A DNA stretch of 64,000 bases, taken from the NCBI GenBank assembly GCA_013178155.1, contig JABLXH010000018.1, positions 2,702 to 66,701 on the forward strand, given 5' to 3'. Of this stretch, positions 36,964-57,860 are shown one piece after another (positions within the stretch are counted from its first letter, which is position 1; each line of letters begins with the position of its first letter). The notes under the pieces were generated by a model. That model searched no databases. It worked only from the letters and a program-made list of their open reading frames with translations, and was not told the origin of the DNA. This DNA is from Armatimonadota bacterium (lineage in GTDB: Bacteria; Armatimonadota; Zipacnadia; Zipacnadales; UBA11051). A program made the translations under genes and the position numbers.

Positions 36964-37251
36964 TCAGCTCCCGTGAAGCCTGTAGACAGCCGCCTCAAGC
37001 TCCTCGCGGCTCACCTGATGCAGCCCCTTCTGTTTCAGCCTTTCCCTCACGAACCGGCGCTTCGCCTCACCTTTGCCTGGGCCGTACAACTGCTCTGCCG
37101 CCTCAACCAGCGTCATCAGTAGCGCTCGCATCCGCTCATCCCTCAGCCGTGCGACCCACTCACGCACCATCCCCGTCAGCGCCAGCGCCAACACTCCCAC
37201 CAGTCCCGGCACCACAGCATCTCCTATCCAACCTGCAACCAACTCCCGCAT
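36964..37251 (-). CDS. putative phage holin (LL-H/phi-LC3-like, Phage_holin_6 family)
   Basis: One N-terminal TM segment 'WIGDAVVPGLVGVLALALTGMV', then 'LVEAAEQLYGPGKGEAKRRFV...LKQKGL...EELEAAVYRL', resembling LL-H family holins. It is the last gene of the phage block. Confidence 0.45.
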   Translation of the reverse strand: MRELVAGWIGDAVVPGLVGVLALALTGMVREWVARLRDERMRALLMTLVEAAEQLYGPGKGEAKRRFVRERLKQKGLHQVSREELEAAVYRLHGS

Positions 37252-37335
37252 CCTGGTCCGTCCTCCCTCGCCAGACTTGCTACTGCCATGCCCTGCACCA
37301 ACCGCTGGCCTCACGATGGCCCGGGCTTCGGCGCC

Positions 37336-38037
37336 TCAAGCCACAAACCCGCTGCGCGTCCACGAATACTCGAAGTCTTGCGCGGTCTGCGCCTGGTTAG
37401 TCGCCACCACCACGAAGCCATCGGCGCGGTATGTCTCCCACACCTCAACAACGAAGTCCGGAGCCGCTACCTCCACCTCGATCGCCCCCGGCACCACGAA
37501 GACCGTGTCATGGCTGATTGGCACCGTCACCGATCCCCCTGGAGGCACCGCCTCACTCAGGCCACTGCCCGAGGCCCTGCCGATGTGCAGCCGCCGACAG
37601 TCCCGGTCCACTCCCCCGGCCCAATCATCCACTGCCGTGACCGCGCCACTTCCGTCCAGCGTCATCGTGCCCAGTAAGAGCGACCCCGCTGGCCTTGTCG
37701 GACTCAGCGCGGCGAAGAAGCGCACCGTCCCTTTCGGCGCCGAATCGCTGTCCGTCCCCGCAAACACATAGTTCACTGCTCCCGGTGTCAAGTTCGCCAC
37801 GCTCTGTGCTCCCGTCGTGGCACACCAGCACGCCCCCACCAGGCCTTCCCCTGCCGTCACCGTACCGTCCAGCGCCAGAGACCAGCCTTCGTATACGCCG
37901 GCGGCCATCATCCGCTTGAGGAACCAGCCCAGCACCCGATCTACCGTGTCTGCCACACGATTGTGGTGCTGTGGCTCGATGAGATCATCGGCCAGTACAC
38001 CGGTCGCCAGGCCGTAGTTCGCCGAAACGCCTGCCAT
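37336..38037 (-). CDS. phage tail-associated hypothetical protein (233 aa)
   Basis: Position within the block. No recognisable motif. Confidence 0.5.
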   Translation of the reverse strand: MAGVSANYGLATGVLADDLIEPQHHNRVADTVDRVLGWFLKRMMAAGVYEGWSLALDGTVTAGEGLVGACWCATTGAQSVANLTPGAVNYVFAGTDSDSAPKGTVRFFAALSPTRPAGSLLLGTMTLDGSGAVTAVDDWAGGVDRDCRRLHIGRASGSGLSEAVPPGGSVTVPISHDTVFVVPGAIEVEVAAPDFVVEVWETYRADGFVVVATNQAQTAQDFEYSWTRSGFVA

Positions 38038-38082
38038 CCGCTCTACAGCTCCCTTCCTTGCCGCCTCTCTGCGGCCCCTCGC

Positions 38083-38295
38083 TCACCACCCCGCCGCCAC
38101 GTAACTCACCTTTCCGTAACGGCCCCGGCTGTAACGTCCTCCCTCCAGACCGCCCGGCCGCCCACTAAGAAACACATAGCGGTTTCCCACGTCCAGGGTG
38201 CGATCCGGCAGCCGTCCCGCGACCGTCGCCCCGCCGCGCTGCGCGGGTCGCACCCGCTGGTCCACCACTTCCTTTACCAGAGCCGCCAATCTCAT
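38083..38295 (-). CDS. small hypothetical protein (70 aa) in phage block
   Basis: Only a short ORF between tail genes supports it. Confidence 0.3.
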   Translation of the reverse strand: MRLAALVKEVVDQRVRPAQRGGATVAGRLPDRTLDVGNRYVFLSGRPGGLEGGRYSRGRYGKVSYVAAGW

Positions 38296-38307
38296 CTCCG
38301 AACCTCC

Positions 38308-40605
38308 TCACTCGCCACTTCCCAGCCACCAGGCCTCCAGGACCGTCACCGCCAACCGCTCGGGGTCCCGCACCACCTGATGTCGCACCCCCGAAATCCG
38401 GTAAAGCTGCCTGGTCACCCCCACCGTCTCACCCCCATTGACACGGATCACCTGTCCCGGCTCCGCCTCAGGCAACAGCGGGGTAACCACGACCACATGC
38501 TCCGGGCGCGGTGACAGCTGTGCCAGCCGCTCGGCGGCCAGGCGGTTTACCGTGTCCTGCCCCACCATTCCCGGCAACGTCCATACATCCATTTTCCTCC
38601 AGCCCACGAACCTCTCGCAGCTCGGATCGCTCACTGACGCTGCATCGTACAACACGGCCCGCACCGGAGCCCCATCGGTGCCCAGACCGCACACCACCAC
38701 CCAGTTGGCGTAATCCTCGCGACCCAGGCTGCGGCGCTCCCTCCGCAGCTCCAGCACCTCCCCGGGCTCCGCCGGATCGGGTGCCACCGCATCCCGCGTG
38801 TAAAGCTCCCATGTCACCTCCGCCGGACACGCGCTCCCCAGGCCACCCGAGTGCCTTGCTACATCCTGCGCCGTCCGCATCTGCCGGCAGTACCGACAGC
38901 CCTTCCGGAAGACGCCGTCTACCCCGAACCAGAACGCCGCGTTGTAGTCAAACCGGGCCACCTCCTGCAGAAACTCCGACCAGGTGCGCCCGGCCTCCAC
39001 TTGCCAAAGAGGCTTCGCCGCCGAACCCGTCGTCAGTGCGACACCCGTATCCTCCAGCGACTGCTGGGCTGCCGCGATCCCACACCGTCCCAGCACCCAC
39101 CTGAAGACCTCCACCACCGGCCAGCCGTCGAAGACGGGCGTACGCCCTTCCGCCTTCTCATCACGCAGGCGGAGCATTCCATCGAGCACACCAATCTCGG
39201 TCTCCGCCGCCCCGCCCGACAGAAGTGCCGCCGGCGGCTCCACTACGTACCCATCACAGACCTGGCGCAGTTCCTGGTGACCTTCGTCGTCTTCCCAGCC
39301 CAGGGCTATCGTCAGCCGACGATGCTCGGACAGCTCCTTGTAGCCTCCCAGTTGCCCATCTACCCGCACCTCATAGTATGCGGTCAGCAGGTCATCTGTC
39401 CGCTCGCCCAACACCGCGATGACATCACCGCTGATGTCCGCAAACTCCAGCCCCTCATCAACCTCAACCTGCGCTTCCTGCCAAATGTGCGTCGCCAGCC
39501 ATTCCGGGGACACCCACGTGCTGAACTCCACGGCTTCCCCTGTGTCAGGGTCAGTGCCGACCTCACCCTCATAGTGCAGATGGGGCATCATCCGCACCCG
39601 CCAACTCCGCTGCGTAACCCCCAGACCCTCGCGCTCCGCCGTATCATCCGTTACCTCAACCCCAGCCAACACCTGCCCGGCATCATCAATGACCGGAATG
39701 CTTCGCCCCTCCACCCGCACCACCCCGGTGCTCTCACGGGTAGGGTACCCGGTCTCGATGGGACCACTGTGCACGGTTGCCAGAACCATCTTTACCGGGA
39801 AGAAGGAGAAGCTCCACTGGCCAGCGTTGTGCCACAGGCTCACCTTGCCCTGCCGAACAGCCGCCGGACCGTCGGCGAGTGTGCACACCATCACGTCATT
39901 AGCAAACCCGTCCGTGGACAGCACGACCTTGCCCTCCAGCACACCAATCCACAGGAAGCTGCGCTGCCCCTTGGGCAGACCCTCCAGCGACGGCAGGCGC
40001 AAGGCTCGCTCGCTGTGCGGCACGCGCTCCCATTGGCCACCAAGACGCCGAACCAGGTACATCGGTGACCCGTAGGGAATCACCACAGCCCATTCCTCCT
40101 GCTCCCCGACCCCAAAGTGCACCTCGGTATAGGGCGGCTGGCCCCAGTCATGGCCGGACCCCGGTTCCGCGCGCCACAGCGCCAGGGCAAACATGGGGTT
40201 GCGCGGTAGCGTGAAGCGACTCTCCACGCCGGTCACGATGTTCGGTGTGCCGTCCTCCTGGTAAAGGCGCACCTCCTCATTCAGCCCCAACCCCCGAAGC
40301 GCCCGCCACCGCCCGGCAACCGGTGCGAAATGGCCCAATCCGATGGCCTGAGTAGTGTCCAGGAACGGCCGACACAACACAGTATCAAGCCCCTCGGCCG
40401 CCACATGCATCGCCGCCGGATAGACGGCCCGGTACCCTTGCCCATCCCAAAGGCCCAGTGCCTCTACCGGACTCACCTGCACCTGGTTCCGCCTCATCAG
40501 GTCACCGGCCAGATCGTAGCGCCCAAAGCCATCGTACTTGGCCCGCGACCTCACTCCCGGCTCATACAGCCTGACCCGTGCTATTGGACAACCTCGCCTC
40601 GCCAT
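38308..40605 (-). CDS. large phage distal tail / host-specificity-like protein (765 aa)
   Basis: Size and position after the 1070-aa tail protein. The call is inferred by analogy with the large distal genes of GTA and siphophage tails. Confidence 0.55.
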   Translation of the reverse strand: MARRGCPIARVRLYEPGVRSRAKYDGFGRYDLAGDLMRRNQVQVSPVEALGLWDGQGYRAVYPAAMHVAAEGLDTVLCRPFLDTTQAIGLGHFAPVAGRWRALRGLGLNEEVRLYQEDGTPNIVTGVESRFTLPRNPMFALALWRAEPGSGHDWGQPPYTEVHFGVGEQEEWAVVIPYGSPMYLVRRLGGQWERVPHSERALRLPSLEGLPKGQRSFLWIGVLEGKVVLSTDGFANDVMVCTLADGPAAVRQGKVSLWHNAGQWSFSFFPVKMVLATVHSGPIETGYPTRESTGVVRVEGRSIPVIDDAGQVLAGVEVTDDTAEREGLGVTQRSWRVRMMPHLHYEGEVGTDPDTGEAVEFSTWVSPEWLATHIWQEAQVEVDEGLEFADISGDVIAVLGERTDDLLTAYYEVRVDGQLGGYKELSEHRRLTIALGWEDDEGHQELRQVCDGYVVEPPAALLSGGAAETEIGVLDGMLRLRDEKAEGRTPVFDGWPVVEVFRWVLGRCGIAAAQQSLEDTGVALTTGSAAKPLWQVEAGRTWSEFLQEVARFDYNAAFWFGVDGVFRKGCRYCRQMRTAQDVARHSGGLGSACPAEVTWELYTRDAVAPDPAEPGEVLELRRERRSLGREDYANWVVVCGLGTDGAPVRAVLYDAASVSDPSCERFVGWRKMDVWTLPGMVGQDTVNRLAAERLAQLSPRPEHVVVVTPLLPEAEPGQVIRVNGGETVGVTRQLYRISGVRHQVVRDPERLAVTVLEAWWLGSGE

Positions 40606-40629: not shown

Positions 40630-43600
40630 CTAGCTCCCGACCACCAACCACCGCCCACCATCATCCACACTGTGAGCTCTTGCCACTGCTCCCGCATGTT
40701 CCCACAGCAAGACCAACCTCCCCGTCCCATCCTTCTCCACCGTCGGGTTCGTGTTGTCGCCGTCGCTGGTCACCGCTCGCCCTGTCTCCCACTGACCGGG
40801 TAGTCCCCCCCGCCGCGTCATCCACACCTCACCCTCCTGACCCCAGAACAGAAAGAGCTGTCCCACCGCGTCGTCCAGGAGGTGCGGCCCGCCCCAGAGG
40901 CCACCGATCTGCCAGGCCACATGCGTGGGCGCCCGCTCCGTCACCGAGACCCCTGCCCCTGGCGCCAACAGCGGCCCATCGTTGACCAACGCGAATCGGC
41001 ACTGCCCACTCGGCGGCGCCTCCACGATCCGCACGTCTGTCACCGCGTCGTAGAGCCCTGCTCCCTCGTATGGGGCGCCCACCAACTCCGCCCGCGACTT
41101 GCTCACTGGCGTGACCGGAATGACCTGCCCTACGGGATCCTCCTCGTTCGGCCCTCGCGTGCCCGCAGGGATCACCACCCGCCGCGTCTCCACCATGCCG
41201 TCTGACCGACGGCAGTCCACCTCCACCACCGCCTGCTCCTCTTGCACGTACCCCCACGGAAAGCACAGCTTCACCTGTGACAGACCCAGCTCCCGTCCAA
41301 CCTCGGGCAGCTCACCGAAGTACTCCAGGTCATGCCCGGCGATGAAGGGCGGGTTGTGCGCCAGGTCAAAGCGTCCAAACCCCTTCCCGTCGTCCACCTC
41401 ATCCACATGGCGCGCAAACCATCGCGGCGCGTTCGTCGCCTGCCCCAGCCCGCCCTGAACCAGATAGTCGTCCGTCTCGTTGTAGAGATCAGGCCGCCAG
41501 TGCCGTCGCACTCGGCTCGCCGCCACTCCACCGCCTCGCCGCACACGCAGGAAGCCTAGGGCATAGGCAGCCTCTCCCGCCAACAGTCCCGGCGTCAGGA
41601 AATGCGTGCGCCCATCCATCGCCTCCGCAGCCCCGAAGCAGTCGGCACATTGTATGCAATACCCGCGTCGGTACCCCGGTACGTCCGGATCCCGCCACGT
41701 CGGGCCGCCGCAGTAGGGACAGAGCAGGTCCGTCCAGCAGCTTGCCTCCGCTCCGCCCTCAAACGCCCGCTCCGCGCGAACCTGTGTGTACCACTCGTGC
41801 TCCCCGAACTCCAGCCCCAGCCGCAGGGCCTCCGGGAGTTCAACCCCGATGGGCGCCGAGTGTCCAGCCACCACGCCTCCCTTGACCTTCCCGCCGATCA
41901 GGAACTTCGCTTCAGGATAGTAGCCAGAGGCCCGGAACTGACCTGCCAGGTCCTCATACTCGCAAAACGACTGCGACCGTAACCCGAAGCTGCTCTGCAG
42001 CACACCGCTCTCCGACCAGAGGCTGTACTCCCGCAACTGCGGACCGGATAGGAGCAACTCCCAGGGATCAGCCACATAGCGAAACTTGGGCAACGCCTCG
42101 ACCGTCACCCAGCCCCCATAAGCAGCCTCTTCGGTCTCATAGCGCTGCTGTGTCTGCGTGTCCTCAACCCAGATCCCGTCTTGCAGGTACTGGAAGTTCG
42201 CGTGTCCCCGGTCACCCTTGCGCCACAGCTCGGGCTTGTAGATCTCCTGCCACCCGGCGTAGGCCCTGGCGCCCAGGACCACGTCCGAATACGGGTATCC
42301 CAGCACGGGCACGCTCCCCCAGACCGCATCATGCACCCACGGGTCTCCGCTCAGGCCGTCCTGCGGAATCTCCACCTCCCAGTACCCGCTCTCATCGGTC
42401 TCGGCGATCGGCTCTCCAAACTCTCCTGTCTCGTAGTTGAGCGGCAGGATGGACACCCCAACCGCCGGTCGCCCCATCCGCTCGTAGACCCGGCCCGCGA
42501 TGACGCCAGCCTCCGGGTCGTAGAAGCGCATGGCTCCCATGTCCACCGTCGCCGTCTCGCCCTCGCGCACCACCACACTCTTTCGCGCGCACCCGTACCT
42601 GCTGTCCCATTCCCCCCACGCATCGCGCCGAAACTGAACCACCGTGTGTTCGCCGCTCGGTAAGCCGGTCACCGTCACCATGCCATCCGTCGGGACCAGG
42701 TACGCATCTCCCGCCTCGTCATGAACCCCTACCCTCACCCACGCCCCTGGTTCCCCGGTTATCTGCAGCCGCCCGCTCAGGAGGTCTATGACCGCCTCCT
42801 CACCCTCACGCAACTCCGCTCTCCGTCCCCGATAGACCATCCACAGCTTGTCCACGTGTCGGTCAGACCGCTGCCCCGCCGTCTCCGCACTCTCATCGCG
42901 CCGGTCTCCGGCTCGCTGGTAGATCGCCCCGTGGCCCTTTGGACACACGAAGCTCCAGCGCCCATCCGCGTCCGTCCGGATGGGCGCCACCACACTTGGG
43001 CCCTCAACCCACGTCTCCAACTCCGGCGACCAGATGAGTTCGTTGTACTCCTGGCTGTCCCAGAAGCGACTCTCCACGCCCTGGTGGTCAACGGTAATGC
43101 CCTCCAGGCTGACGTTGGCCCCCTCCACGGGCGCCCCATTGTGCAGCACCCGCCCCCGCACCCGGTAGCCCATCACAAAGGTCTCGTCCAGCGGCGGCGC
43201 ACAGAACTCCTCAGGCTGTAGCCGTCGCCCCCAGTAAGGGTCATCTACCATGACCACGTACTTCCCTGTCAGGGCCCCCACCGGAGTCCGGAAGTCCATG
43301 GCCTCCAGGGCGATCTGCTCCACCAGGTACACGTCAGCACCGTCCAGGACCGTGTCCGGCTCTAGGGCCTTGTACACGCGGCCCGTCACGACCCCTCCTG
43401 CGGCCTCAAAGCTGACCAGGCCCCCACTCGTCCGTTTCCGGGCCACGGTCACTCCCCATTGACCACCCAGTTGCACCAACTCGGGCCGCCACTCTTCAGA
43501 CGCCGCCCCATCCAGCAGTGTCGCGCACTCCGCCAGCTCCTCGACCTCGCTCCAGTCCCGCCTGGGCGTTGCCCTCGAAAGCCCAACTAGCTGCTCCAGA

Positions 43601-43842
43601 CACCCCGCCACCTCGGCCGCAATCCCGCGCTCCAGCGCCGTGCGGTCTGCACCATCGTAGTCCAGCCCACTGGTCCCGTCGGAGCGCCAGGCCTGCTCAA
43701 CCAGCGCCAGTGCAAGGTACGTGAGGCCAGCCTTCAAAGCGCCCACTCCAACCGGGTTGTCCTCAGCCTCCGCCTCCCGGGCCCGGACCACACCGACCAG
43801 CCCCGCTATCCTCTCGCCCAGACCCGGCTGCACCAGACCCAT
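40630..43842 (-). CDS. giant phage tail protein (1070 aa) with carboxypeptidase-regulatory-like beta domains, a CxxC..CxxC zinc-ribbon and C-terminal BNR-like repeats
   Basis: 'DADGRWSF', 'DESGYWEVEIP' (CarbopepD_reg/Cna-B-like). 'CPYCGGPTW...CIQCADC'. C-terminal 'TSDGDNT', 'DDGGRW'. Confidence 0.6.
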   Translation of the reverse strand: MGLVQPGLGERIAGLVGVVRAREAEAEDNPVGVGALKAGLTYLALALVEQAWRSDGTSGLDYDGADRTALERGIAAEVAGCLEQLVGLSRATPRRDWSEVEELAECATLLDGAASEEWRPELVQLGGQWGVTVARKRTSGGLVSFEAAGGVVTGRVYKALEPDTVLDGADVYLVEQIALEAMDFRTPVGALTGKYVVMVDDPYWGRRLQPEEFCAPPLDETFVMGYRVRGRVLHNGAPVEGANVSLEGITVDHQGVESRFWDSQEYNELIWSPELETWVEGPSVVAPIRTDADGRWSFVCPKGHGAIYQRAGDRRDESAETAGQRSDRHVDKLWMVYRGRRAELREGEEAVIDLLSGRLQITGEPGAWVRVGVHDEAGDAYLVPTDGMVTVTGLPSGEHTVVQFRRDAWGEWDSRYGCARKSVVVREGETATVDMGAMRFYDPEAGVIAGRVYERMGRPAVGVSILPLNYETGEFGEPIAETDESGYWEVEIPQDGLSGDPWVHDAVWGSVPVLGYPYSDVVLGARAYAGWQEIYKPELWRKGDRGHANFQYLQDGIWVEDTQTQQRYETEEAAYGGWVTVEALPKFRYVADPWELLLSGPQLREYSLWSESGVLQSSFGLRSQSFCEYEDLAGQFRASGYYPEAKFLIGGKVKGGVVAGHSAPIGVELPEALRLGLEFGEHEWYTQVRAERAFEGGAEASCWTDLLCPYCGGPTWRDPDVPGYRRGYCIQCADCFGAAEAMDGRTHFLTPGLLAGEAAYALGFLRVRRGGGVAASRVRRHWRPDLYNETDDYLVQGGLGQATNAPRWFARHVDEVDDGKGFGRFDLAHNPPFIAGHDLEYFGELPEVGRELGLSQVKLCFPWGYVQEEQAVVEVDCRRSDGMVETRRVVIPAGTRGPNEEDPVGQVIPVTPVSKSRAELVGAPYEGAGLYDAVTDVRIVEAPPSGQCRFALVNDGPLLAPGAGVSVTERAPTHVAWQIGGLWGGPHLLDDAVGQLFLFWGQEGEVWMTRRGGLPGQWETGRAVTSDGDNTNPTVEKDGTGRLVLLWEHAGAVARAHSVDDGGRWLVVGS

Positions 43843-44641: not shown

Positions 44642-44942
44642 CGTCCCGCGGACCTCCCGCTCGGTCCCAACCCCTCCAGTACGCCCGCTGCAACTCCGCC
44701 CGCCACGCCTCCACCAACAACTCAGGGGGCGCCGCAGGGCGCCCCCCTCTCCACACGTCCTCCAGAGCCCGCCAGGTTAGCAGCACCCACCCGGGCAAGG
44801 GTCGCGCCGTCCACCCCTCGCTGCCTGCGAGGGCCTCCAGCTCCCGCTGATCCGCGAAGTCAACCCCCTCCCGCCTCTGCGGGGCCGCACTTGCCGGAAG
44901 CCAAGCCGCCAGATCGGCCAGACCAACCGTCGCCGCAGTCAT
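44631..44942 (-). CDS. small phage hypothetical protein (103 aa)
   Basis: Short ORF co-oriented in the tail module. It overlaps the next gene by 11 nt. Confidence 0.35.
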   Translation of the reverse strand: MTAATVGLADLAAWLPASAAPQRREGVDFADQRELEALAGSEGWTARPLPGWVLLTWRALEDVWRGGRPAAPPELLVEAWRAELQRAYWRGWDRAGGPRDDGW

Positions 44943-44962
44943 CTGCAGCGCCCCCAGCCAAG

Positions 44963-48511: not shown

Positions 48512-51500
48512 GTCTCAGACCACACTCCCTCCGAGTTCCGCACCCGCACCTTCCAGAAGTAAGTCGTGTCATCGGACAGCTCCGGTCCCCCAAACTCGAC
48601 CTCTGTCTCCGGGCTTGCCACCACACCGCTGTCCCAGATGTCCCCGGTGTTGGCTGCCAGCAGCTCAGCACTGGACGCCACCAGCACCTGGTACGCCGTC
48701 TGGGGCTTGCCCTGCGGATCGGAGTACCTCCACGAGAGCGCCGGTGTCAGGTCCGTTATGCCCGTGGGATTGATCTGACCCTCCACCCGCAGCTCCGTCG
48801 CCGTTGGCGCTCCCACAGCGTCCCGACCCGCCGCGTACCACGCATAGAGACTGGGCGAAACGTCGGTCGCCAGCGGCCGCTGCAGCACAAAGCGCAACCG
48901 CACCTCCTCCGCGGTCACGTGGTTGAGTGACACCCCGCCCCACGACACCACCTGCTCCACGCCCGGCCCCAGCACGTCACAGTCCTCGGCCCCAAATCCC
49001 GCCAGCGGCTCCTCCGTGCGCGGGTCAATCACCTCCACCCGCACGCTCCCCGCCCCTGGTTCGCAGTTCACCAGCAATCGGGACCAACCGCTGCTCGGCC
49101 TCTGCAGTACCGGCGTCTCCAGGAACCCGGTTACCGCCCCCGCCGCCAGCTCGTAGTACGTCTCCCGGTCACGCCCAATGTGCGCCATATTCAGACCGGT
49201 GCCGGCGTAGTAGTACAGAACCAGCTTGTCCCCCAGCAGAAACGAAGTCCGCACCGGCCCCCCGGCCAGGAACTCTTCATCCACCGGCTGGAAGTGCCGG
49301 TCATCCTCCGTCGCCCAGAGCCTGAGGTAGCTCCCAAAGGACAACACGTACAGCGTCGTGAAGTCGTCCGACACGGGCCGCGGGTGTAGCTCGTACAGAT
49401 CCGCCGCTGCCAGAGGGCTCAGCAGATTGCCGTGCGGCAGCAGGAAGAAGCTCCTGAGGTCTCCGCTCGTCCACCCGGCGAGCGGGCGCCGGTTGTAGCT
49501 GAGGTAGTCCCCCGACATCAGCATCGTCTTGAACCGACTGTAGCCCACAAAACGACGCTCTGGTCTCGAAGCATAGGGATTGTGCGCCACCATCCAGTCC
49601 GCGTCCCGGTTGCCCCACAGGCAGATGCTGCCACCGTCCGCCGACAGCTTCTCCGTGCCGCCCATGCCCGGCAGCAACGGGTTCTCCGTCCACCAGTGTT
49701 TCTCCCAGTCAAAGCTCCAGCGGTCCTGCGCGCCCACCAGCGCCCTGATCCAGTAGTGATCCGGATTTGCCTCCGTCCCCCCCTGCAGCATCGTCCAGGA
49801 CCCATCCGGCATCCCCAGCACCGTCGCGATCCCCGGGCTCTCCAGACCCCAGGTCGCGTCCCGGGTGCTCCATGGTCGCACGTCCTCCGGACTCAGGAAG
49901 GGATTCTGCCGTCCTGCGGGAGGGGTCTCGTCAGCCCACGACACCCGTGACCGGGTCGCATCCCAGGTTCCGACCAGATAGCCCCCTCGCCACACGCCTC
50001 CGGGGTCCGTGCCTCCCACCAGCACCGTCACCCGGTCCAGAAGCTCCTGGGGCTGCACGACCGAGTGCAACTCCGCCGTGTGCCGCCAAGTCCCCGCCGC
50101 CCGCAGGTCCGCCTCCACACCCGCAGGATCCGGGTCAACGACCGGCTTGGCCGATCTCCAGACCACACCCTCCTGGCGCCACACCCGGCTACTCTGACCA
50201 GTGTCCACGTCTCGCACCAGGAAACTGTCCCCCAGCTCGAAACCCCGCCCCAGCGCGGAGTCCTCGGGAGCCATTGTCTGGTACCCGCCGGGCCCCTCGA
50301 TGGTCAGGCTCTCCAGCCGGATATCGCATTGATAGCTCGCCGGCACCGGGTGGCTGATGCTTCGCCCAAACATCATGTACCGCCCAAGCGGGTCACTCCG
50401 GTAGTTTGTCAGCGTCATCAGCGCCGACCGACCACGCTCATACCGCACCAGCGTAGTGCTCTTGTCCGCGCTATAGACACACTCCAGCTCCAGCCACGGA
50501 CGATCGGTGCTGTAAGACTCCCACAACCACGCCTCCAGATTCTGCTGCTCATTCAGGGGCGTCGCCGATGCGAGCAGGCGCCCCCGGTGATCCACAACTC
50601 CCTTGTCGCCGGCCGCTGGCACTCCCGCCAACGCCCCGCTCACAGTGATCACGCCGGTCGCCGCCGTGTAGCCCGTCACCTTCAGCCGACACCCCGCCTG
50701 CGCCCCCGTCCGCATCGTCAGCTCTGCGCCAACCCAGTAGCCATCCCCACGGTTTGGCAGGTTCGTCTTGAACCGGGACGCCGTGTTCCCCGCATCGGCC
50801 ACCACCGCGAACAGCTCTCCGGTACCCCAGGTCCCGAAGTTGTTCCCGAGTTGGCCTCCAGCCACGTAGCACAGGGGACCCAGCGTGATCTGCGTCCCCA
50901 CCGGGTTCGTCTCCGCCGGGCAGTTCACGCGCATCCGAATCGTCGCCGGACACGCCATGTGAAACGGGTTGATCCATTCCCGCAGCCACCCTACGCCTTG
51001 CCCCGTGCTGCTGCCTCCATATAGCTGACTGACTTGCACCTGGCCGTAACGGGCGTGGTTGGTCAGCGTCGTGTAGGCGCTCGCCCCCGCATGCGTAATG
51101 GGGGTCAGCACCGCCTGCAGCGGAACGCGGTCATCGGGCGTGTTGTCATGCCGAGGCATGCCGATATTGAAATGGTGTCTGACGCCTCGCGCCCGTGACC
51201 CATCGTCCAGCCGGCAGAACTCATCCCAATCCGCACTGCCAACCTCCCAGTACGCCGTGGCGTCGCCACCAGCTATCTCCGCATCGTAGCTGCCGTCGAA
51301 GGTCGCCAACAGGGTCAGTTGCCCCGTGCCATCGCTCTCCCGGATCAGTCGTCGGCGCCGGTTCTGCCTCGTGGCCCACGAGTTGGCGCCCCCCAGGATC
51401 GCGTCATGCTGCGCCTTCGTCATCACGCCGTCCCAGACTGCGAAGTTGTCGTAGCACCCGTTCACCGCTTCCGCCGTCTCCGTGGCTCCCGGGCCCAGGT

Positions 51501-51912
51501 ACAGCTTCGCCGCCTCCACCACGGGTGCCGAAGCGTTGTTTACCTGCGCCGGCGCCTCAACCCCATTCACATACACTCGCAACTGCCCGGCCCCTGGCGT
51601 CGTGAAATCCCACGTACAGGTCACCGGCATCCAGTGGTTCCTGTCGCGCCACGGGTAGTTGGGCCAGCTAACCCACCACGAAGTGCCGCCTGACCGACAC
51701 TCGAAACCCAGCGAATCTGCCCCGAACACACCGAAGCGCAGATAGTTGTTGCTGTCGCCCACGGCCTTCCATAGCGGACGCCACGACGGATAGTCCGGGG
51801 AGGCATGGAACCAGAAGAACACCGTCCCCTGGCTGCCCGGTCCGATCCTGATGTTGCCCGGACCCGAGTAATAGAACCCCGGCTTGCCCACATACAGAAA
51901 CTGCTTCCTCAT
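48505..51912 (-). CDS. giant phage protein (1136 aa) with N-terminal LamG/concanavalin-like jelly-roll and C-terminal fibronectin-III-like domains, encoded between capsid and connector genes
   Basis: The ORF-track N-terminus 'MERGEGRE...' is a translation of the intergenic repeat. The real ATG at 51910-51912 ('MRKQFLYVGKPGFYY') has GGAGG 6 nt upstream. LamG-like region 'WRPLWKAVGDSNNYLRFGVF...LRVYVNGVEA'. C-terminal FN3-like 'PTGITDLTPALSWRYSDPQG...YFWKVRVRNSEGVWSETW'. Confidence 0.65.
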   Translation of the reverse strand: MRKQFLYVGKPGFYYSGPGNIRIGPGSQGTVFFWFHASPDYPSWRPLWKAVGDSNNYLRFGVFGADSLGFECRSGGTSWWVSWPNYPWRDRNHWMPVTCTWDFTTPGAGQLRVYVNGVEAPAQVNNASAPVVEAAKLYLGPGATETAEAVNGCYDNFAVWDGVMTKAQHDAILGGANSWATRQNRRRRLIRESDGTGQLTLLATFDGSYDAEIAGGDATAYWEVGSADWDEFCRLDDGSRARGVRHHFNIGMPRHDNTPDDRVPLQAVLTPITHAGASAYTTLTNHARYGQVQVSQLYGGSSTGQGVGWLREWINPFHMACPATIRMRVNCPAETNPVGTQITLGPLCYVAGGQLGNNFGTWGTGELFAVVADAGNTASRFKTNLPNRGDGYWVGAELTMRTGAQAGCRLKVTGYTAATGVITVSGALAGVPAAGDKGVVDHRGRLLASATPLNEQQNLEAWLWESYSTDRPWLELECVYSADKSTTLVRYERGRSALMTLTNYRSDPLGRYMMFGRSISHPVPASYQCDIRLESLTIEGPGGYQTMAPEDSALGRGFELGDSFLVRDVDTGQSSRVWRQEGVVWRSAKPVVDPDPAGVEADLRAAGTWRHTAELHSVVQPQELLDRVTVLVGGTDPGGVWRGGYLVGTWDATRSRVSWADETPPAGRQNPFLSPEDVRPWSTRDATWGLESPGIATVLGMPDGSWTMLQGGTEANPDHYWIRALVGAQDRWSFDWEKHWWTENPLLPGMGGTEKLSADGGSICLWGNRDADWMVAHNPYASRPERRFVGYSRFKTMLMSGDYLSYNRRPLAGWTSGDLRSFFLLPHGNLLSPLAAADLYELHPRPVSDDFTTLYVLSFGSYLRLWATEDDRHFQPVDEEFLAGGPVRTSFLLGDKLVLYYYAGTGLNMAHIGRDRETYYELAAGAVTGFLETPVLQRPSSGWSRLLVNCEPGAGSVRVEVIDPRTEEPLAGFGAEDCDVLGPGVEQVVSWGGVSLNHVTAEEVRLRFVLQRPLATDVSPSLYAWYAAGRDAVGAPTATELRVEGQINPTGITDLTPALSWRYSDPQGKPQTAYQVLVASSAELLAANTGDIWDSGVVASPETEVEFGGPELSDDTTYFWKVRVRNSEGVWSETW

Positions 51913-52067: not shown

Positions 52068-52107
52068 CCCCCCTCTCCACCCTGTGGAGAGGTGCCGGGG
52101 GTGAGGT
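52068..52107. repeat. phage-block intergenic palindromic repeat, copy R2
   Basis: cccctctccaccctgtggagaggtgccgggggtgaggt lies 5 nt after the capsid stop. Confidence 0.85.
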
Positions 52108-52112: not shown

Positions 52113-53051
52113 CTAGCTCTTCGCCACGTTCACGGCCACCACCATCGCATCCGGGTTCTCGATGGCCACCGCCACCCGAGTCGTGATCGCATACACATTC
52201 ACGCCCCGCAGGATGTCCTTGTCCTTGTCAATGCGGATCTCCCGATGGATACCAAACACCAGGTTCTCACGCGGCGTCAGAAACCCGTAGCTCAGGTTCG
52301 TCCCCACGTGACCAAGGATCCCGCTGAGGTTGGTCGGAATGACCGGCACCGACACCACGGGCACCCCCATGTACGGCGGCACCTCACCACCAAGCAATGC
52401 CTTGTCCCCCAGCGACGTGCCCCGGTCGGCAAAGGTGTCATGCCAATCCTGCGCTGCCGCCGGCGCAAAGTAGAACCGCAGGTCCTTGTAGTTGCGCTTG
52501 TACTTGTCCGGCAGCGCCCGGAACATCGCCCCAAGGCCCGACTTGTCCAGCGTTGCCCCCTCCAGGTCCACCACGTGCCCGTCATCCGCCAGCACCCGCC
52601 AGCCGTCCAGCCCCGACAGGAACGGATCAGCGGAGTTCGTGTCACCGTGCACCGCCAGCTCCTCCAGGTCCGTGGCCGTCTGCTTGGCCATCACCCGCAC
52701 CACCGTGCTCTCCAGACCATCGCCCTCGATGCTGTCCTCCAGCGCCTCAAAGGTGATCTCAAACGGGGTGATGACGTCCGTCGCCCGTAGTATCACCTTC
52801 CCGAACGCTGGCTCGCTCAACGTGGCCGGAGCCACTCCCTCATTCTTGAGTTGGCTCACACGCCCCGTGGTCGCGATAGTGTCCAGCTCGGTCACCGCCG
52901 AGCGCATCCGCACCACGCGCACTTCCTTCAGCATTACCGACTGGTCCACTACCAGGTCCGTGAACCGTTTGGCCTGCTCAGTCCCCAGCAACCCACCGTC
53001 CGCCAGATCCGTCGTGTCCACGGCCTTCTGCAGCATCTCGTCTACTGTCAC
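52113..53051 (-). CDS. HK97-fold major capsid protein
   Basis: 312 aa with the Phage_capsid pattern ('...TLSEPAFGKVILRATDVITPFEITFEALEDS...VMAKQTATDLEELAVHGD...'). Confidence 0.82.
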   Translation of the reverse strand: MTVDEMLQKAVDTTDLADGGLLGTEQAKRFTDLVVDQSVMLKEVRVVRMRSAVTELDTIATTGRVSQLKNEGVAPATLSEPAFGKVILRATDVITPFEITFEALEDSIEGDGLESTVVRVMAKQTATDLEELAVHGDTNSADPFLSGLDGWRVLADDGHVVDLEGATLDKSGLGAMFRALPDKYKRNYKDLRFYFAPAAAQDWHDTFADRGTSLGDKALLGGEVPPYMGVPVVSVPVIPTNLSGILGHVGTNLSYGFLTPRENLVFGIHREIRIDKDKDILRGVNVYAITTRVAVAIENPDAMVVAVNVAKS

Positions 53052-53492
53052 TCACAGCACCCCTTCCCAGATCTCGTCTGCCGTCAGTAGTCGCGCCCGC
53101 TGGCCGCGCAGCCCCTGCGGGACCCCTGGACGCGTTACCTCCTCTGCCGTCCGGTCAGCCTCGGCCGCCCTGCTCTTGGTCAGAGCGTCCGTATCCGGGT
53201 TCTCCCTCCACTCGCTGACCGCCTCGACCAACTGCGCCTCGCTACCACCTTGCCCCACGCCATACGCCGCCTCCACCGCCGCCACGCGCTCACTCAGCTG
53301 TCTGACCTGTTCTGCCAGTCCTGCCAGTCCGTCACCACCGCACCCCCCGCCGCAACCGCCCTCATCCACGTTGTTCGCCAGGGCCGGCTGACCCAGACTC
53401 GCCTCGTAGCCTCCCTCACTATCCCGCGGCCCGGCCACCGGGCGGCGAGACCTCCTCATCCACCACCAGAGCGCCCTCAGCCAGCCGCGCAT
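53052..53492 (-). CDS. phage scaffold/decoration-like acidic Gly-rich protein
   Basis: It lies between the protease and capsid genes. ATG at 53492 (GAGGTGG RBS) overlaps the protease end by 16 nt. An alternative ATG is at 53459. Confidence 0.45.
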   Translation of the reverse strand: MRGWLRALWWWMRRSRRPVAGPRDSEGGYEASLGQPALANNVDEGGCGGGCGGDGLAGLAEQVRQLSERVAAVEAAYGVGQGGSEAQLVEAVSEWRENPDTDALTKSRAAEADRTAEEVTRPGVPQGLRGQRARLLTADEIWEGVL

Positions 53493-54007
53493 CCGCTTCC
53501 CACCTCGCCCTGCCCCCTCTCCCGCTCCGTCCTCGCCGCCGACACCAGGGTCTCCACCCACGTCTCCGGGTTCTGTGCCTCACTGCTGTGGCAGACCGCC
53601 ACATGGTCCAGCTCCGCCATCTCCACCTTGCGCACCCGCCGCCCCGTCCGGACGTCCATCTCGTATGTCACCTCGCGGACGCGCCCTCCCACGCTCAGCC
53701 TGCGACCCCGCAGGCGCACCAGCCCGCGCTTCAGCCGACCCTCGACCCGCAGCTTGCCATCCTCCACCCAGCAACGCTCCACGACCCCGATCGCTCGGCC
53801 GCCGTGGCGCTCAAGCAGTGGCACCGGCTGCGCCGCCGCCAGGCTTTCCAGAGCTGCCTCTGTCATGCAGTCGCCCTGACGGTCCACTGCGGTCGTCGCG
53901 GCGACCCCCTGAAACCGCACTGCCGTGCGATTACCCCGCCCAGCTCTCAGCAGCACCGCAAAGCCCATGCGGCCTCCGCTGCCCTCACTCACTCCCCGTC
54001 TGGCCAA
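53477..54007 (-). CDS. HK97-family prohead protease (Peptidase S78)
   Basis: 'FQGVAATTAVDRQGDCMTEAALESL...VPLLERHGG.AIGVVERCWVEDGKLRVEGRL' fits the S78 pattern with the catalytic His. Confidence 0.72.
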   Translation of the reverse strand: MARRGVSEGSGGRMGFAVLLRAGRGNRTAVRFQGVAATTAVDRQGDCMTEAALESLAAAQPVPLLERHGGRAIGVVERCWVEDGKLRVEGRLKRGLVRLRGRRLSVGGRVREVTYEMDVRTGRRVRKVEMAELDHVAVCHSSEAQNPETWVETLVSAARTERERGQGEVGSGCAAG

Positions 54008-54186
54008 CCCTCACTCCCCTCCCCGAAACAGCAAGCGGCCCACTCTCCCGAGTGAGCCGCAATGATCAACGTTCATCCTCGCCTTGTCTGCCCGACGTGC
54101 CGCCGCAGTGGCCCGACGTGATTCACCAACCTCAATCTCTCACTCGCCCTCTGCACCCGGTGGTGAGGGGGCCAGGAAGTGAGGCC

Positions 54187-55398
54187 CTATCCCAGCGGCG
54201 CCAACCCCATCTTGCCCCGAATCTCGTCTACCGTCAGCGCCCCAATGCCTGCGTATACCGCGGCCACCTCGGCCTCTTCCTTCGCCTCCGACAGATCGAG
54301 TTCGTTGAACCGAAATGCCCAGTCGCCAATCCCCAACTGTTCCGCAATCAGCCGGTTGAACCGGTACTCCACCCGCCGCTGCTCGGGCCGCACCACTTGC
54401 TCCCGGAACGTCTTGTCCTGGTCTTTGCTGTTGGCCAGGTTGGCGTTCTCAATAACCGTCACCTTGCTCGGCGGCACGCGATGAACCAGCAGCACCTCGT
54501 CTCGATTCGCCCGCCGGTAGTCCAGGAACGCCGCGTCCTCCTGACCCCCCGCTGTCAGTTTCTCCAGACGCACCCGCGTCTCTCGCCCCGGCACCTCGAG
54601 CACCAGCGTCTTGTGCCCCTGCCCCTTCACCTCGCTTTGCATGAAGTGGCGCAGTTGCTCCAGAACCTCCTCTGACAACTGACCACCCTCCACGATGATC
54701 GCCATCCGGGGCACCGCGTTATGGGTGAAAAAGTCCACGTTGTACTCTCGGGCCGCCTTGTCCCCCAGTACCGCCGATACCGCGGGCACAATGTCTGGCA
54801 CTCCATAGTAGCTGGACATCGGCGTGTACTTCATGAAGTGCAGCATCTCGTTTTGCACCAGCCCGCTCTCCGGGTCAATCTCCTCCGGTCCACCAACCAT
54901 CCGGAACCGCCGCCGCTGACCCTCGCGTTCCTGGACGAACCCCTTCCGGTCCGCGCGCACGCGCACAGTTGTCGCCGGCACATGGTACATCCCGTCCAGT
55001 TGGCCCCGGCTGTTGCGCGTCAATTCCATATACCCGTTGCCAACGCACTCCACGTCCGTCCACACCGCTCGCATGACCTCCGTGAAGGTCATGTCTGGAT
55101 TGCAGGTGGCAAAGAGATGCTCCAGCACTGCCAGGTTCTCCGCCGAAGCCTCTCGCTCATCCCCGACAGGCACGAAGCGGTATCCCAGACCCACGATGTT
55201 GGTAGCCTTGGCATCAACGCACGCCTTGTGGGCCGCATTGGTCTCATACAGCGAGGCCAGCGCCTCCAGATCATACGGCGGCTGCACAACCTCTCCGGTT
55301 GCGTAAGCTTCACTCCACACCGCCTCTGGTAGCTGCTGACTACGCCCACCGACCGTCTCACCGACCACCCTCGCCTTAATCAGCTCATCAATCGCCAT
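54187..55398 (-). CDS. phage portal protein (HK97 family)
   Basis: Portal pattern 'NIVGLGYRFVPV...VECVGNGYMEL...'. The ORF-track N-terminal 64 aa derive from the intergenic repeat. ATG at 55396-55398 has GGAGG 8 nt upstream. Confidence 0.82.
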   Translation of the reverse strand: MAIDELIKARVVGETVGGRSQQLPEAVWSEAYATGEVVQPPYDLEALASLYETNAAHKACVDAKATNIVGLGYRFVPVGDEREASAENLAVLEHLFATCNPDMTFTEVMRAVWTDVECVGNGYMELTRNSRGQLDGMYHVPATTVRVRADRKGFVQEREGQRRRFRMVGGPEEIDPESGLVQNEMLHFMKYTPMSSYYGVPDIVPAVSAVLGDKAAREYNVDFFTHNAVPRMAIIVEGGQLSEEVLEQLRHFMQSEVKGQGHKTLVLEVPGRETRVRLEKLTAGGQEDAAFLDYRRANRDEVLLVHRVPPSKVTVIENANLANSKDQDKTFREQVVRPEQRRVEYRFNRLIAEQLGIGDWAFRFNELDLSEAKEEAEVAAVYAGIGALTVDEIRGKMGLAPLG

Positions 55399-55526: not shown

Positions 55527-55560
55527 CCCCTCTCCACTGTGTGGAGAGGGGCCGGGTGTG
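55527..55560. repeat. phage-block intergenic palindromic repeat, copy R3a
   Basis: cccctctccactgtgtggagaggggccgggtgtg. Confidence 0.85.
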
Positions 55561-55577
55561 CGCCTTGCCCTTGCCGT

Positions 55578-55620
55578 CCCCCCTCTCCACTCTGCGGAAA
55601 GAGAACCAGGGGTGAGGTCA
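55578..55620. repeat. phage-block intergenic repeat, degenerate copy R3b (contains stop codon of upstream BNR gene)
   Basis: cccccctctccactctgcggaaagagaaccaggggtgaggtca. The TGA of the 55618..56052 gene lies in 'gtgaggTCA'. Confidence 0.8.
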
Positions 55621-56052
55621 CACCTCACTCTCCTTCACCCACGTCTCACCATCATCCACACTCACGTACACATCGATCGCCGGCGCCCTCTGGACAGCGA
55701 CCACCAGCGGTCGCCCTTGGGTGTCCACCTTGACCAGCCCCGCCCGTGCCTCATCCGCTGGCGACGCCACCAGCCGCTCCTCGCTCCCGTCGGCAAACCT
55801 TAGCCACGTCTGACACCCATCGGCACTCTTCCGCAGATACTGCCCGCCGCCGCGATACCCTACCACGTACCAGATCCCCCCATACTCCACCATCACCGGA
55901 TGGCTCAGCCCTGTCACCTCACCCACCTCGCTCCCCTCCCCGCCGTCGCCGTACGCCACGCACCATAGGCCATCGCCGTTGCCCTCTTGTTTTTCTCTTA
56001 TGCGCCTGATATGCGCCTGACCCAAACTCCCGGAGCGATGAGGCTCCGTCAT
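55618..56052 (-). CDS. small BNR (bacterial neuraminidase) repeat-containing protein within phage head module
   Basis: Two S-x-D-x-G-x-T-W motifs, 'SADGCQTW' and 'VDDGETW'. It lies between the terminase and portal genes. Confidence 0.5.
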   Translation of the reverse strand: MTEPHRSGSLGQAHIRRIREKQEGNGDGLWCVAYGDGGEGSEVGEVTGLSHPVMVEYGGIWYVVGYRGGGQYLRKSADGCQTWLRFADGSEERLVASPADEARAGLVKVDTQGRPLVVAVQRAPAIDVYVSVDDGETWVKESEV

Positions 56053-56109: not shown

Positions 56110-56150
56110 TCCCTCTCCACCCTGTGAAGAAGGGCCGGGGGTGAGGTCAC
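56110..56150. repeat. phage-block intergenic palindromic repeat, copy R4 (contains terminase stop codon)
   Basis: tccctctccaccctgtgaagaagggccgggggtgaggtcac. The terminase stop TGA (plus-strand tca) is at 56147-56149. Confidence 0.85.
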
Positions 56151-57667
56151 ACGATCCTCCCCCTGACCCCATCGTCCTCACCCCATGCCCGCACCGCCTC
56201 ACTCACCGCACCGGCCACCGCATCAGCCACATCCTTCGAACCCCCTGGCGGATGGTCCACCTTCACGCCCCGCACCAGCTCCAGCCGCCGCAGTTCCCGC
56301 AGCAACGGCTCGTAGGCATACATCCGGAGCCGCCCGTCATACGCCAACTCCTTCAGCGTCTCGTACGCCCCCGTATCCCGATCCACCGACACCGTCGCCA
56401 CCTGCAGACCGTGGCGCCGCAGAATCTGCTGACTATCGGCACTCTGCCAGCCGTCGTAGCTCACTTGGGCAATCGGAAAGCCCCGCGCTCTGAGCGCCAG
56501 TATCAGCTCGCGAACCTGTGCCAGGTCCACCTCCCCACGCGCGGGAGCCGCGATCCGGTGCATCAGCTCCACCACCGCCACCGGCCGCCCCGCCTCGGTG
56601 ACCACCTTTGCCATCGCCACGCCGCACGCATCCCGTCGCAGCCCCAGGTCCACGTGCACATATCGGGCCTCCCGGTCGTCAGGCCGAAACCACGCTGCCA
56701 GCGCGCCCTGGCCCTCGATCGGATGCCGCCGGTGCGCCTCGCAGGCCTCCTCCAGGGGCCCTATGTCCGTGAAGTAGGGCTGAAACGCCGTCCCGGGCAG
56801 CGCCGCCAGATCTCGCTTGGCCTTCTCTGGGTTCCGACGAAACTCCGCCTCATACTCCACGGGCACCGTCAGCCCATCAAACTCAAAACGCTTTCCGCAA
56901 AACCTCCCACGAGGCTTGACCTCCCACGTTGCCCTCCGCGACCCGTAGATCGTCGGATCACTCTCCGCCTCAGCCAGCTTCCGCATGACGAAATCGTCGC
57001 AGTGCCGCGGCGAAGAGGCGATAACCATCAGCCCCTGGTCGCCAAACCTTGACCGGATCCGCCGCTGCAAGGCCAGATACACATCCTCCGCCGCCTCCCG
57101 CCGACCATCCAGGGTCTCCACGAAGAAGCTCGCCTCATCCATGGTCGCGCACAGCACGTTCAGCCCCAGCGGAAAAGTCTCACTGGAATTACCCGGCAGC
57201 ACCACCACATTCTTCGGAAAGTGCAACTCTCGCCGCACCCGCGCATCGGGCTTGTAACGCTCCCCAAACCATGGCGACCGCTGCACCAGCTCCCGCAGCT
57301 CCCCAAACACCACCTTCTCCGCCACTCGCGCCGTCGGACCCACCGTCGCCAGGACGATCTGACTCCCCTCCGCCAACCCCAACTCCCTTTGCGGCGCCCG
57401 CAGACACAGCGTCCGATACAGCCGGTAGAGTAGCGCCAGCGTGCACAGGTACGACTTCCCACTCCCAATCCCCCAGCACAGCACCGCCTCCTGGTAACGG
57501 CCCCGGAAGATCCGTCCCAGCGTCCTCAGCACCTCCGGATAGACGCTGGCCCCCACCCCCAGGTACTCCTCGTCACACACAAAACGCCGCACCGAGACCG
57601 GCCTCTCATCCCACCTCTGTCGTCCCGCCCGGGCCACCGGCGCCAGACCTTCGCCCTTCTCGTCCAT
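56147..57667 (-). CDS. phage terminase large subunit
   Basis: Walker A-like 'CWGIGSGKSYLCT' near the N-terminus and a C-terminal nuclease-like region. 506 aa. First gene of the block. Confidence 0.78.
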   Translation of the reverse strand: MDEKGEGLAPVARAGRQRWDERPVSVRRFVCDEEYLGVGASVYPEVLRTLGRIFRGRYQEAVLCWGIGSGKSYLCTLALLYRLYRTLCLRAPQRELGLAEGSQIVLATVGPTARVAEKVVFGELRELVQRSPWFGERYKPDARVRRELHFPKNVVVLPGNSSETFPLGLNVLCATMDEASFFVETLDGRREAAEDVYLALQRRIRSRFGDQGLMVIASSPRHCDDFVMRKLAEAESDPTIYGSRRATWEVKPRGRFCGKRFEFDGLTVPVEYEAEFRRNPEKAKRDLAALPGTAFQPYFTDIGPLEEACEAHRRHPIEGQGALAAWFRPDDREARYVHVDLGLRRDACGVAMAKVVTEAGRPVAVVELMHRIAAPARGEVDLAQVRELILALRARGFPIAQVSYDGWQSADSQQILRRHGLQVATVSVDRDTGAYETLKELAYDGRLRMYAYEPLLRELRRLELVRGVKVDHPPGGSKDVADAVAGAVSEAVRAWGEDDGVRGRIV

Positions 57668-57763
57668 CTACCCCTCCCACGCCTCGCCCTGCACCAGCCT
57701 CCGCCGTTGCTCGGCAAGGGCTTGTCCCCCGCCCGCCATCGGTCCTCGCTCCCTCGCTGTTCT

Positions 57764-57802
57764 CCCCTCTCCACCCTGTGGAGAGGGGCTGGGGGTGAGG
57801 TC
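57764..57802. repeat. phage-block palindromic repeat, copy R5a (upstream of terminase)
   Basis: cccctctccaccctgtggagaggggctgggggtgaggtcc. Confidence 0.85.
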
Positions 57803-57816
57803 CAGCCCCCTGCCGT

Positions 57817-57860
57817 CCCCCTCTCCACCCTGCGGAGCGGGGCCGGGTGTGAGGTCTCAC
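57817..57860. repeat. phage-block palindromic repeat, copy R5b
   Basis: cccctctccaccctgcggagcggggccgggtgtgaggtctcac. It is preceded by 'tgccgtcc', as in R3b, so R3a/b and R5a/b are the same composite ~95-bp unit. Confidence 0.85.

Follow-up and report, generated by a model that had tools for sequence, protein, structure and literature searches.

Does a run of phage head, tail and holin genes in an Armatimonadota genome, with neither an integrase nor replication genes beside it, represent an ordinary prophage, its remains, or a particle that the host lineage has kept? The locus lies in a 64,000-nucleotide stretch of contig JABLXH010000018.1 (assembly GCA_013178155.1, class Zipacnadia), hereafter the window. 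There a run of open reading frames (ORFs), ∼21 kb long, occupies positions 36964–57667 on the minus strand. A sequence-only reading had described a co-oriented head, tail and holin block at 36964–57860 and proposed a gene transfer agent (GTA) or domesticated phage-like particle. The block is real, in that place and on that strand, and the proposal is supported as far as architecture and evolution go, particle production and transfer being a matter apart. The signals readable from sequence agree: structural genes only, host flanks, conserved loci, host-like synonymous divergence, purifying selection and no free-phage relatives. They make the block a strong candidate for a new, independently evolved GTA-like particle system.

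A structural gene cluster among host genes

About 19 real genes are counted in the block, including a conserved ORF of 70 amino acids (aa) at 38083–38295, rather than the ∼23 proposed earlier. An ORF at 57526–57873 was rejected as a wrong-frame artefact (GC content at second codon positions 0.74) that overlaps the region upstream of the large terminase gene, TerL. GC content is 66% across the whole window, and the block has its host's values of both total GC and GC at third codon positions (GC3). The coding-strand GC skew is 0.25–0.30 in window 36000–58000, against 0.12–0.22 in co-oriented host genes (30000–36000 and 58000–64000); the skew of the block is thus clearly the stronger although total GC is equal, and G-rich first codon positions may account for part of it.

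No integrase, replication or repressor gene occurs in the block or in its flanks within the window, the window has no tRNA gene, and no att-like direct repeat joins the block ends. The block also has no recognisable small-terminase ORF, and the region upstream of TerL (57746–57856) holds two copies of a hairpin repeat. The absences listed in the sequence-only reading (integrase or recombinase, replication, repressor and small terminase genes) thus hold in the window. A 77 kb twin contig with an identical TerL extends the view by 10 kb upstream of that gene, through Usp, a GHL10-like protein, PIG-L and an E1 dehydrogenase, and this stretch is likewise free of integrase, replication and repressor genes.

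Family searches identify ordinary host genes on both sides of the block, as had been supposed. The proximal flank carries a DUF1559 pseudopilin-like protein, a 764-aa secreted protein, a TPR protein and zinc-ribbon membrane proteins. The distal flank begins a run of 37 kb of host genes on the holin side and includes a REC-only response regulator (RR), a DUF5060 hydrolase-like protein, HIT, a solute-binding protein, signal peptidase, PFK and more genes. An integrase and replication module just outside the block, with att repeats, would have marked an ordinary prophage; instead, host-type genes lie upstream of TerL and at the opposite end. The REC-only regulator beside the block is part of a conserved flank and is the sole observation bearing on host regulation of transfer.

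Distribution and distance to phages

In a scan of one genome per GTDB species, the capsid gene occurs in 16 genomes, once in each, and the carriers bear the label Armatimonadia or Candidatus Zipacnadia, the latter being a class of Armatimonadota, or are unclassified. The capsid further has more than 140 homologue clusters (90% identity clustering) at 60–89% identity, the named ones being Armatimonadota metagenome-assembled genomes (MAGs). TerL has more than 240 homologues, and the tail-tip hub has 58 listed full-length homologues of 755–801 aa. Sporadic presence with a foreign composition had been named as a sign against a GTA. With 16 species-representative genomes, hundreds of metagenomic clusters, and GC and GC3 that match the host, the element is neither sporadic nor foreign.

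The capsids form a discrete clade. When 1.8 billion representatives were searched exhaustively, a single 50%-identity representative covered it (57% identity, E 8e-100), and the next full-length relatives beyond the clade lie at 42–44% identity and below. The nearest of 50,697 sequenced phages reach at most 36% identity in the capsid and at most 40% in the portal. No free phage genome of this lineage was found, and IMG/VR holds only short fragments or cluster-sized pieces, with no genome that includes a replication module. One 57 kb IMG/VR contig (uncultivated virus genome, UViG, 3300037692_000675) was considered as a circular free phage and rejected, since its hub gene is interrupted by a ∼44 kb insert with an unrelated terminase. 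The interruption falls at residue 604 (L038 5620–7431, L039 10001–10480; L-numbers label the sampled contigs of relatives). The insert carries head-type genes, with a GT4 gene at one edge, and probably represents another prophage or phage-like element that entered the cluster.

Wherever contigs reach, the relatives share the order TerL, portal, protease, capsid, giant protein, adaptor, two neck proteins and tube, followed by ORFs in the positions of tail-assembly chaperones and tape measure, and then by p1070, hub, p70, p233 and small membrane proteins. This order is kept in 16 species-representative genomes and many metagenomic contigs, spanning two named classes. The boundaries are alike in all sampled genomes, from TerL (or a TerS-like ORF ahead of it) through the holin and lysis genes, and the ORFs remain full length down to 43–50% identity.

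The sampled neighbourhoods, whose flanks were examined in 10 kb stretches, comprise about 9 proximal and 5 distal contexts. Upstream of TerL lie ilvD-TPR-ilvB in L016; sigma factor, NYN and FHA genes in L003; GGDEF, RR and FUN14 genes in L026; MocA, GHL10 and GHL6 genes in L027; and truB, ribF and further genes, then two DUF1559 genes, in L030. In L007, L009 and L010 the gene for RNase P RNA, rnpB, takes this position, with a single variable gene after it. Downstream, jag-yidC-rnpA is found in L020–22 and L034/35, the window's own RR-DUF5060-SecG-HIT in L024/25, and an Amidase_2 endolysin followed by Usp and M48 peptidases in L019.

Vertical inheritance and selection

Three groups of genomes each keep one neighbour of the cluster: RR-DUF5060-SecG-HIT, rnpB or jag-yidC-rnpA. 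Between the window and L024/25, which share the distal flank, element proteins are 57–88% identical and flank proteins 78–85%. Nei-Gojobori estimates for the window–L024 pair give a synonymous divergence (dS) of 0.59–0.97 for element genes (1.49 for p236) against 0.65–1.12 for three flank genes. The corresponding ratios of nonsynonymous to synonymous divergence (dN/dS) are 0.08–0.45 and 0.08–0.12. Because the dS of the element equals that of the flank at a shared locus, the element has been in place since these genomes diverged, and every element gene has been under purifying selection since then. Vertical conservation at the same locus, which the sequence-only reading had proposed as a check, is therefore borne out by an orthologous locus in relatives and by synonymous divergence equal to that of its flanks.

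The other two groups extend this picture. L007, L009 and L010 represent three species with 77–90% DNA identity across the element, all adjoining rnpB, and homology between L009 and L010 ends ∼225 nt upstream of the TerS-like ORF. The jag-yidC-rnpA adjacency is common to L020–22 and L034/35; here YidC is only 61% identical and the outer genes differ. Since dS between L020 and L034 is saturated, amino-acid identities were used alone. Taken together, the three conserved-locus groups and the dS and dN/dS values indicate vertical inheritance and purifying selection within the host clade.

A conserved sequence of 117–215 nt upstream of the element in L007, L009 and L010 was examined as an att site and rejected; it is the host rnpB and has no copy at the other end. 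The rnpB neighbourhood (L007 482–4000; L009 1–4060; L010 770–3160) has a variable slot between rnpB and the cluster, filled by a HATPase_c_3 protein, an 845-aa membrane protein or a STAND NTPase, and carries partial duplicates of the rnpB 5′ end (L009 1375–1480, L010 774–891). This arrangement resembles a hotspot for integration at rnpB, one that does not depend on the head-tail block.

Packaging and head genes

TerL (506 aa, 56147–57667; this and all block genes below are on the minus strand) matches phrog_2 at 7e-15, and an identical protein carries a precomputed PF27249 assignment. Its sequence has the Walker A motif GIGSGKS, the Walker B motif MDEAS and nuclease Asp motifs. Distant relatives have a TerS-like ORF of 175–205 aa ahead of TerL, which has no counterpart anywhere in the window and no family match in Pfam or PHROG; from its position it may be a small terminase.

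Between TerL and the portal lies a small BNR/Asp-box-like protein (113–144 aa, 55618–55959). In distant relatives its homologue is found between p1070 and the hub (L019 9699–10001; L020 9657–9959), and L026 has a 100-aa ORF in the slot between TerL and portal. Since the BNR/Asp-box-like gene occupies differing slots in the window and the distant relatives, a single gene has been relocated inside the cluster.

The HK97-family portal (403 aa in the NCBI gene call, 54187–55398) matches PF04860 at 4e-43 and phrog_12 at 4e-65. It is followed by a prohead protease candidate (53477–53968), which is present in all relatives and placed by position; it has no direct Pfam hit, and its L026 orthologue gives a weak Peptidase_S78 match. 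A scaffold-like protein (53052–53492) has no family hit and is assigned from its position between protease and capsid. The protease and scaffold candidates form one fused ORF in L030. The HK97-fold major capsid protein (52113–53036, GTG start codon) matches PF05065 at 8e-8 and phrog_1623 at 5e-82.

The head module further includes a giant protein of 1135 aa (range 1135–1191 aa) at 48505–51912, with LamG and C-terminal Ig domains (PF13385, PF25788). It lies between capsid and adaptor, a position kept in all relatives, and has no match among 50,697 phage records. It is a candidate glycan-binding head fibre or decoration protein. The module is completed by a head-tail adaptor (47858–48511, phrog_442 at 1.7e-15) and by two proteins assigned from position and conserved synteny, namely a neck or head-completion protein with no family hit (47292–47837) and a neck or tail-terminator protein with a dN/dS of 0.115 (46504–47178). 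In the packaging and head module proposed earlier, TerL, portal, capsid and adaptor are backed by family hits, the protease by position and the weak Peptidase_S78 match of an orthologue, and the scaffold by position, with the fused ORF of L030 as added support for the last two.

Tail and release genes

The tail tube protein (45395–46300) matches PF18906 at 3.5e-7, is 56–87% identical among relatives and has a dN/dS of 0.078. Next come two small ORFs of 140 and 103 aa (44631–45385) in the position of tail-assembly chaperones, with conserved synteny, and p236 (236 aa, 43931–44641) in the tape-measure position. The length of p236 is kept at 230–239 aa in relatives; its C terminus is conserved, and its middle is hypervariable and fast-evolving. 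We infer from this that p236 is a short tape measure. From its size a tail of roughly 35–50 nm would be predicted. The sequence-only reading had seen no recognisable long helical tape measure; this short protein does fill the position.

The 1070-aa distal tail protein p1070 (40630–43842) has weak CarboxypepD_reg Pfam matches below cut-off and is 39–74% identical in relatives. The adjoining 765-aa tail-tip hub (38308–40605) was modelled with AlphaFold 2 (AF2) from a 45-sequence alignment (pLDDT 88.8, pTM 0.86). The predicted structure is that of a gp27, Mu gp44 or VgrG-like hub with a C-terminal extension: Foldseek comparison with the PDB returns baseplate hubs of these types at E 1e-13 and probability 1.0, and in BFVD two uncultured-phage proteins match almost end to end (4e-29).

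Beyond the hub lie the conserved 70-aa ORF p70 (38083–38295), with orthologues of 71–74 aa in relatives, and p233 (233 aa, 37336–38037), which is 44–78% identical in all relatives covering the region and is a fibre or receptor-binding candidate from its position. The block ends with a 95-aa holin-like protein (36964–37251), a call that a phrog_6918 match at 1.6e-7 upholds, with PF09682 at 2e-3. Since family searches found no tail sheath gene in the block, the tail is probably non-contractile. For the small proteins in the neck, chaperone and tape-measure positions, neither NCBIfam nor Pfam at relaxed thresholds yielded anything further, and PDB sequence searches gave no match for capsid, tail tube, p1070 or hub.

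Hairpin repeats and variation among relatives

An intergenic hairpin repeat, CCTCACCCCCGGCCCCTCTCCAC-AGG-GTGGAGAGGGG on the coding strand, has a 9–11 bp stem and a 3-nt loop without a U tract. The genes for TerL, p144, portal, capsid, p181 and p228 each have a copy immediately behind the stop codon, and two further copies lie upstream of TerL (sites 47249–47269, 52072–52092, 54148–54168, 55529–55549, 55582–55602, 56112–56132, 57766–57786 and 57820–57840). A ninth lies outside the block at 63211–63231; these 9 matches compare with 0.07 expected. The exact motif is missing from relatives apart from L013. The hairpin may act between cistrons in mRNA processing or stability, or it may be a repeat of the repetitive extragenic palindromic (REP) kind. 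Promoter and terminator scans gave sites no more numerous than in shuffled controls, and Rfam gave no RNA family within the window.

Clusters of relatives contain extra genes. In distant relatives a GT4 glycosyltransferase lies between portal and protease, and GT9 enzymes follow the capsid and p233 (L007 7847–8911 and 10961–12220, with equivalents in L009 and L010; L019 13515–14570). L010 has one MazF/SocA toxin-antitoxin pair within its cluster (7990–9037). No regulator or recombinase is among these additions, and the window's lineage has neither the glycosyltransferases nor the toxin-antitoxin pair. The embedded glycosyltransferases hint that virion proteins are glycosylated. The otherwise syntenic L003 carries an opposite-strand DUF1559 gene, a GT9 glycosyltransferase and a tRNA-Ile between the capsid and giant-protein genes (10882–14365). 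DUF1559 or N-methyl pseudopilin-like genes recur beside or inside the cluster (window 57986–58894; L030 7881–9423; L003 11410–12102; L032 16165–16767), which may just reflect the abundance of the family in these genomes.

Two contexts depart from the common layout. L032/L033 (1–22304) holds only the hub-p72-p233-GT9-lysis segment, intact among host genes; an amino-acid permease, Usp and Amidase_3 precede it, a Fic gene has been inserted behind the hub, and the opposite end carries an HTH_3 gene. This suggests that the cluster is split across loci in that lineage. In L031 (9481–12638) a lone TerL homologue (47% identity) has a 168-aa ORF upstream and an Xer-like recombinase with a Czc/Cu efflux island directly after it; this copy is degraded or interrupted.

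Alternative explanations

Considered together, these data make it very likely that the block is a selectively maintained, structural-only, host-resident element, and a vertically kept, domesticated phage-like particle system of GTA or viriform type is its probable identity. Such a phage-derived head-tail-holin operon would have lost, or never kept, integration, replication and lysogeny functions and would persist by selection. Under host control, it would build HK97-type capsids by way of portal, protease and scaffold, and TerL would package DNA by headful; because this lineage has no recognisable small terminase, the packaged DNA would probably not be element-specific. Tube, short tape measure, 1070-aa distal protein and gp27-like hub would form a non-contractile tail, the giant LamG/Ig protein and the distal proteins would bind cell-surface glycans, the holin would help particle release, and the particles would deliver DNA to related cells. 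That DNA transfer is the element's function has a little less than an even chance. A fuller scenario is offered tentatively, as a possibility we would not bet on. The block would be an additional independently domesticated GTA lineage, the first for Armatimonadota and older than the split of Armatimonadia and Ca. Zipacnadia; the small terminase would have been dropped in the window's sub-lineage, with TerL packaging host DNA non-specifically and the giant glycan-binding head protein targeting recipients.

Several points weigh against a domesticated, vertically kept particle. Particles and their cargo are predictions from genes; the capsid T number is not readable from sequence, and a head too small for the 21 kb cluster is an assumption. 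All carriers are MAGs or metagenomic contigs, which puts per-genome copy number and partner loci beyond reach, and the one clean dS comparison free of saturation comes from a single pair of genomes. The flanks differ between deeper groups, so the cluster has been relocated, or its surroundings rearranged, a few or several times. The window copy has no recognisable endolysin, and some copies are damaged (a split TerL in L026, a fragmented p1070 in L023, the lone TerL of L031 and the interrupted hub of one UViG). Such damage and the differing flanks, together with the small terminase and endolysin missing from the window copy, would also fit a decaying cryptic prophage remnant, its copies being independent leftovers of one widespread temperate phage family. 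This is nevertheless very improbable: boundaries identical everywhere, ORFs full length to 43–50% identity and a dN/dS well below 1 (0.08–0.45 at dS ∼0.9, like flanking host genes) are hard to reconcile with a functionless remnant, and no intact parent phage was found.

A functional temperate phage might own the block as its late region, with integrase, regulatory and replication genes elsewhere or too divergent to recognise, and an Xer-like recombinase ∼3.5 kb upstream in L007 and the HTH_3 gene beyond the lysis genes in L032 could be traces of it. Across the sampled proximal and distal contexts, however, Xer-like recombinases are confined to L007, where one lies past rnpB, and to the degraded L031; among the neighbours nothing but the HTH_3 gene of L032 resembles a regulator; the element directly adjoins housekeeping genes; and element dS equals flank dS. 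We regard this late-region explanation as highly improbable. An ordinary, intact prophage is excluded by the missing modules and the co-divergence with the flanks: the window and its relatives hold a structural cluster without replication, integration or lysogeny control of its own, and no integrase or transposase with att site, repressor and replication module lies contiguous with it. A helper-dependent satellite that makes its own virion and borrows integration and replication functions could explain why positions differ between deep groups. Known satellites, such as those of the capsid-forming phage-inducible chromosomal island (cf-PICI) type, retain an integrase as well as a module for replication or a primase, and as a rule they are tailless, whereas the block has no such genes and a full tail module. 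That the block diverged together with its flanks speaks against recent mobility, the search for att repeats was negative, and a satellite is extremely improbable.

What a domesticated particle would do is a separate question, because the same architecture and conservation would be expected of one with another role, either a PBSX-like killer (bacteriocin) or a vehicle for delivery to glycan-coated targets, with DNA packaging incidental. The giant LamG/Ig protein and the relatives' glycosyltransferases point to interactions with surface glycans, and nothing examined speaks specifically for DNA transfer. On the other hand, purifying selection has kept TerL and portal intact, a sign that DNA packaging matters; with no sheath gene among the family-search results, the block is not a contractile killer of PBSX or R-pyocin type; and a tailocin would have tail genes only, whereas capsid, portal and TerL are present and conserved here. 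On balance we think a role other than DNA transfer unlikely.

Significance

Few GTA lineages are known, the majority of them in Alphaproteobacteria, and Armatimonadota are common in soils, sediments and bioreactors. Full-text literature searches returned no paper substantively linking GTAs to Armatimonadota and no description of this cluster, and the paper naming Zipacnadia makes no mention of phage, capsid or gene transfer. The supposition that no GTA had been described in such genomes agrees with this. If the particles transfer DNA, they would give this little-studied phylum a means of gene exchange that had gone unrecognised, and would offer a new system, non-homologous to that of Rhodobacter capsulatus (RcGTA), for asking how phages become domesticated. 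Recognising new GTA-like elements bioinformatically, and telling them from dead prophages, remains difficult (PMC12946183).

Comparison with known systems

The block resembles RcGTA in being a head-to-tail structural cluster of ∼15–21 kb without integrase, replication or repressor genes, in its chromosomal location, its conservation throughout a host clade and the purifying selection on its genes, and in its HK97-type portal, protease and capsid and its non-contractile tail. Both also have a very short tape measure: that of RcGTA is ∼216 aa and fills a 49 nm tail (PMC7296036), compared with the 236 aa of the protein in this position here. There is no homology beyond the generic HK97 module. 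Pfam and NCBIfam searches of the block gave no match to RcGTA-specific families (g10–g15, the GTA TIM-barrel host-specificity protein and others), and the sole link is a marginal PDB match to the RcGTA portal (E 2e-3) that is generic to the HK97 family. Judged from its sequence, the block is not a member of the RcGTA family. It also differs in having the 1135-aa LamG/Ig protein within its head module and a holin at the cluster end. In RcGTA, lysis and head-spike genes stand at loci other than the main cluster. The locus tags of the head-spike genes are far from it (PMC7296036). An oblate small head, random packaging and transfer have been demonstrated for RcGTA, whereas the block is known from genes alone, and the window's lineage is without a recognisable small terminase.

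PBSX and similar defective prophages of Bacillus likewise are fixed in the chromosome, consist of structural and lysis genes with no functions for integrating or replicating, and are conserved in a group of hosts. The PBSX tail is contractile and sheathed, and PBSX also encodes an Xre repressor and a small terminase, whereas the block has no sheath gene and no repressor was found in the window. With temperate HK97-like siphophages the block shares folds and the late-operon order of terminase, portal, protease, capsid, connectors, tube, chaperones, tape measure, distal tail and lysis genes. In contrast to their prophages, it has no integrase, att site, repressor/Cro pair or replication module, is only ∼21 kb long, co-diverges with host flanks, and has only 33–40% identity to the nearest sequenced phages.

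A further parallel comes from Firmicutes of the gut, the Oscillospiraceae and Ruminococcaceae, in which GTA-like candidates have been inferred by packaged-DNA sequencing (PMC12946183, 2026). Those candidates belong to another phylum and rest on packaged DNA, where the present case rests on comparative genomics. Set beside each other by description, the two are alike as candidates for independently domesticated capsid systems outside the classic GTA hosts.

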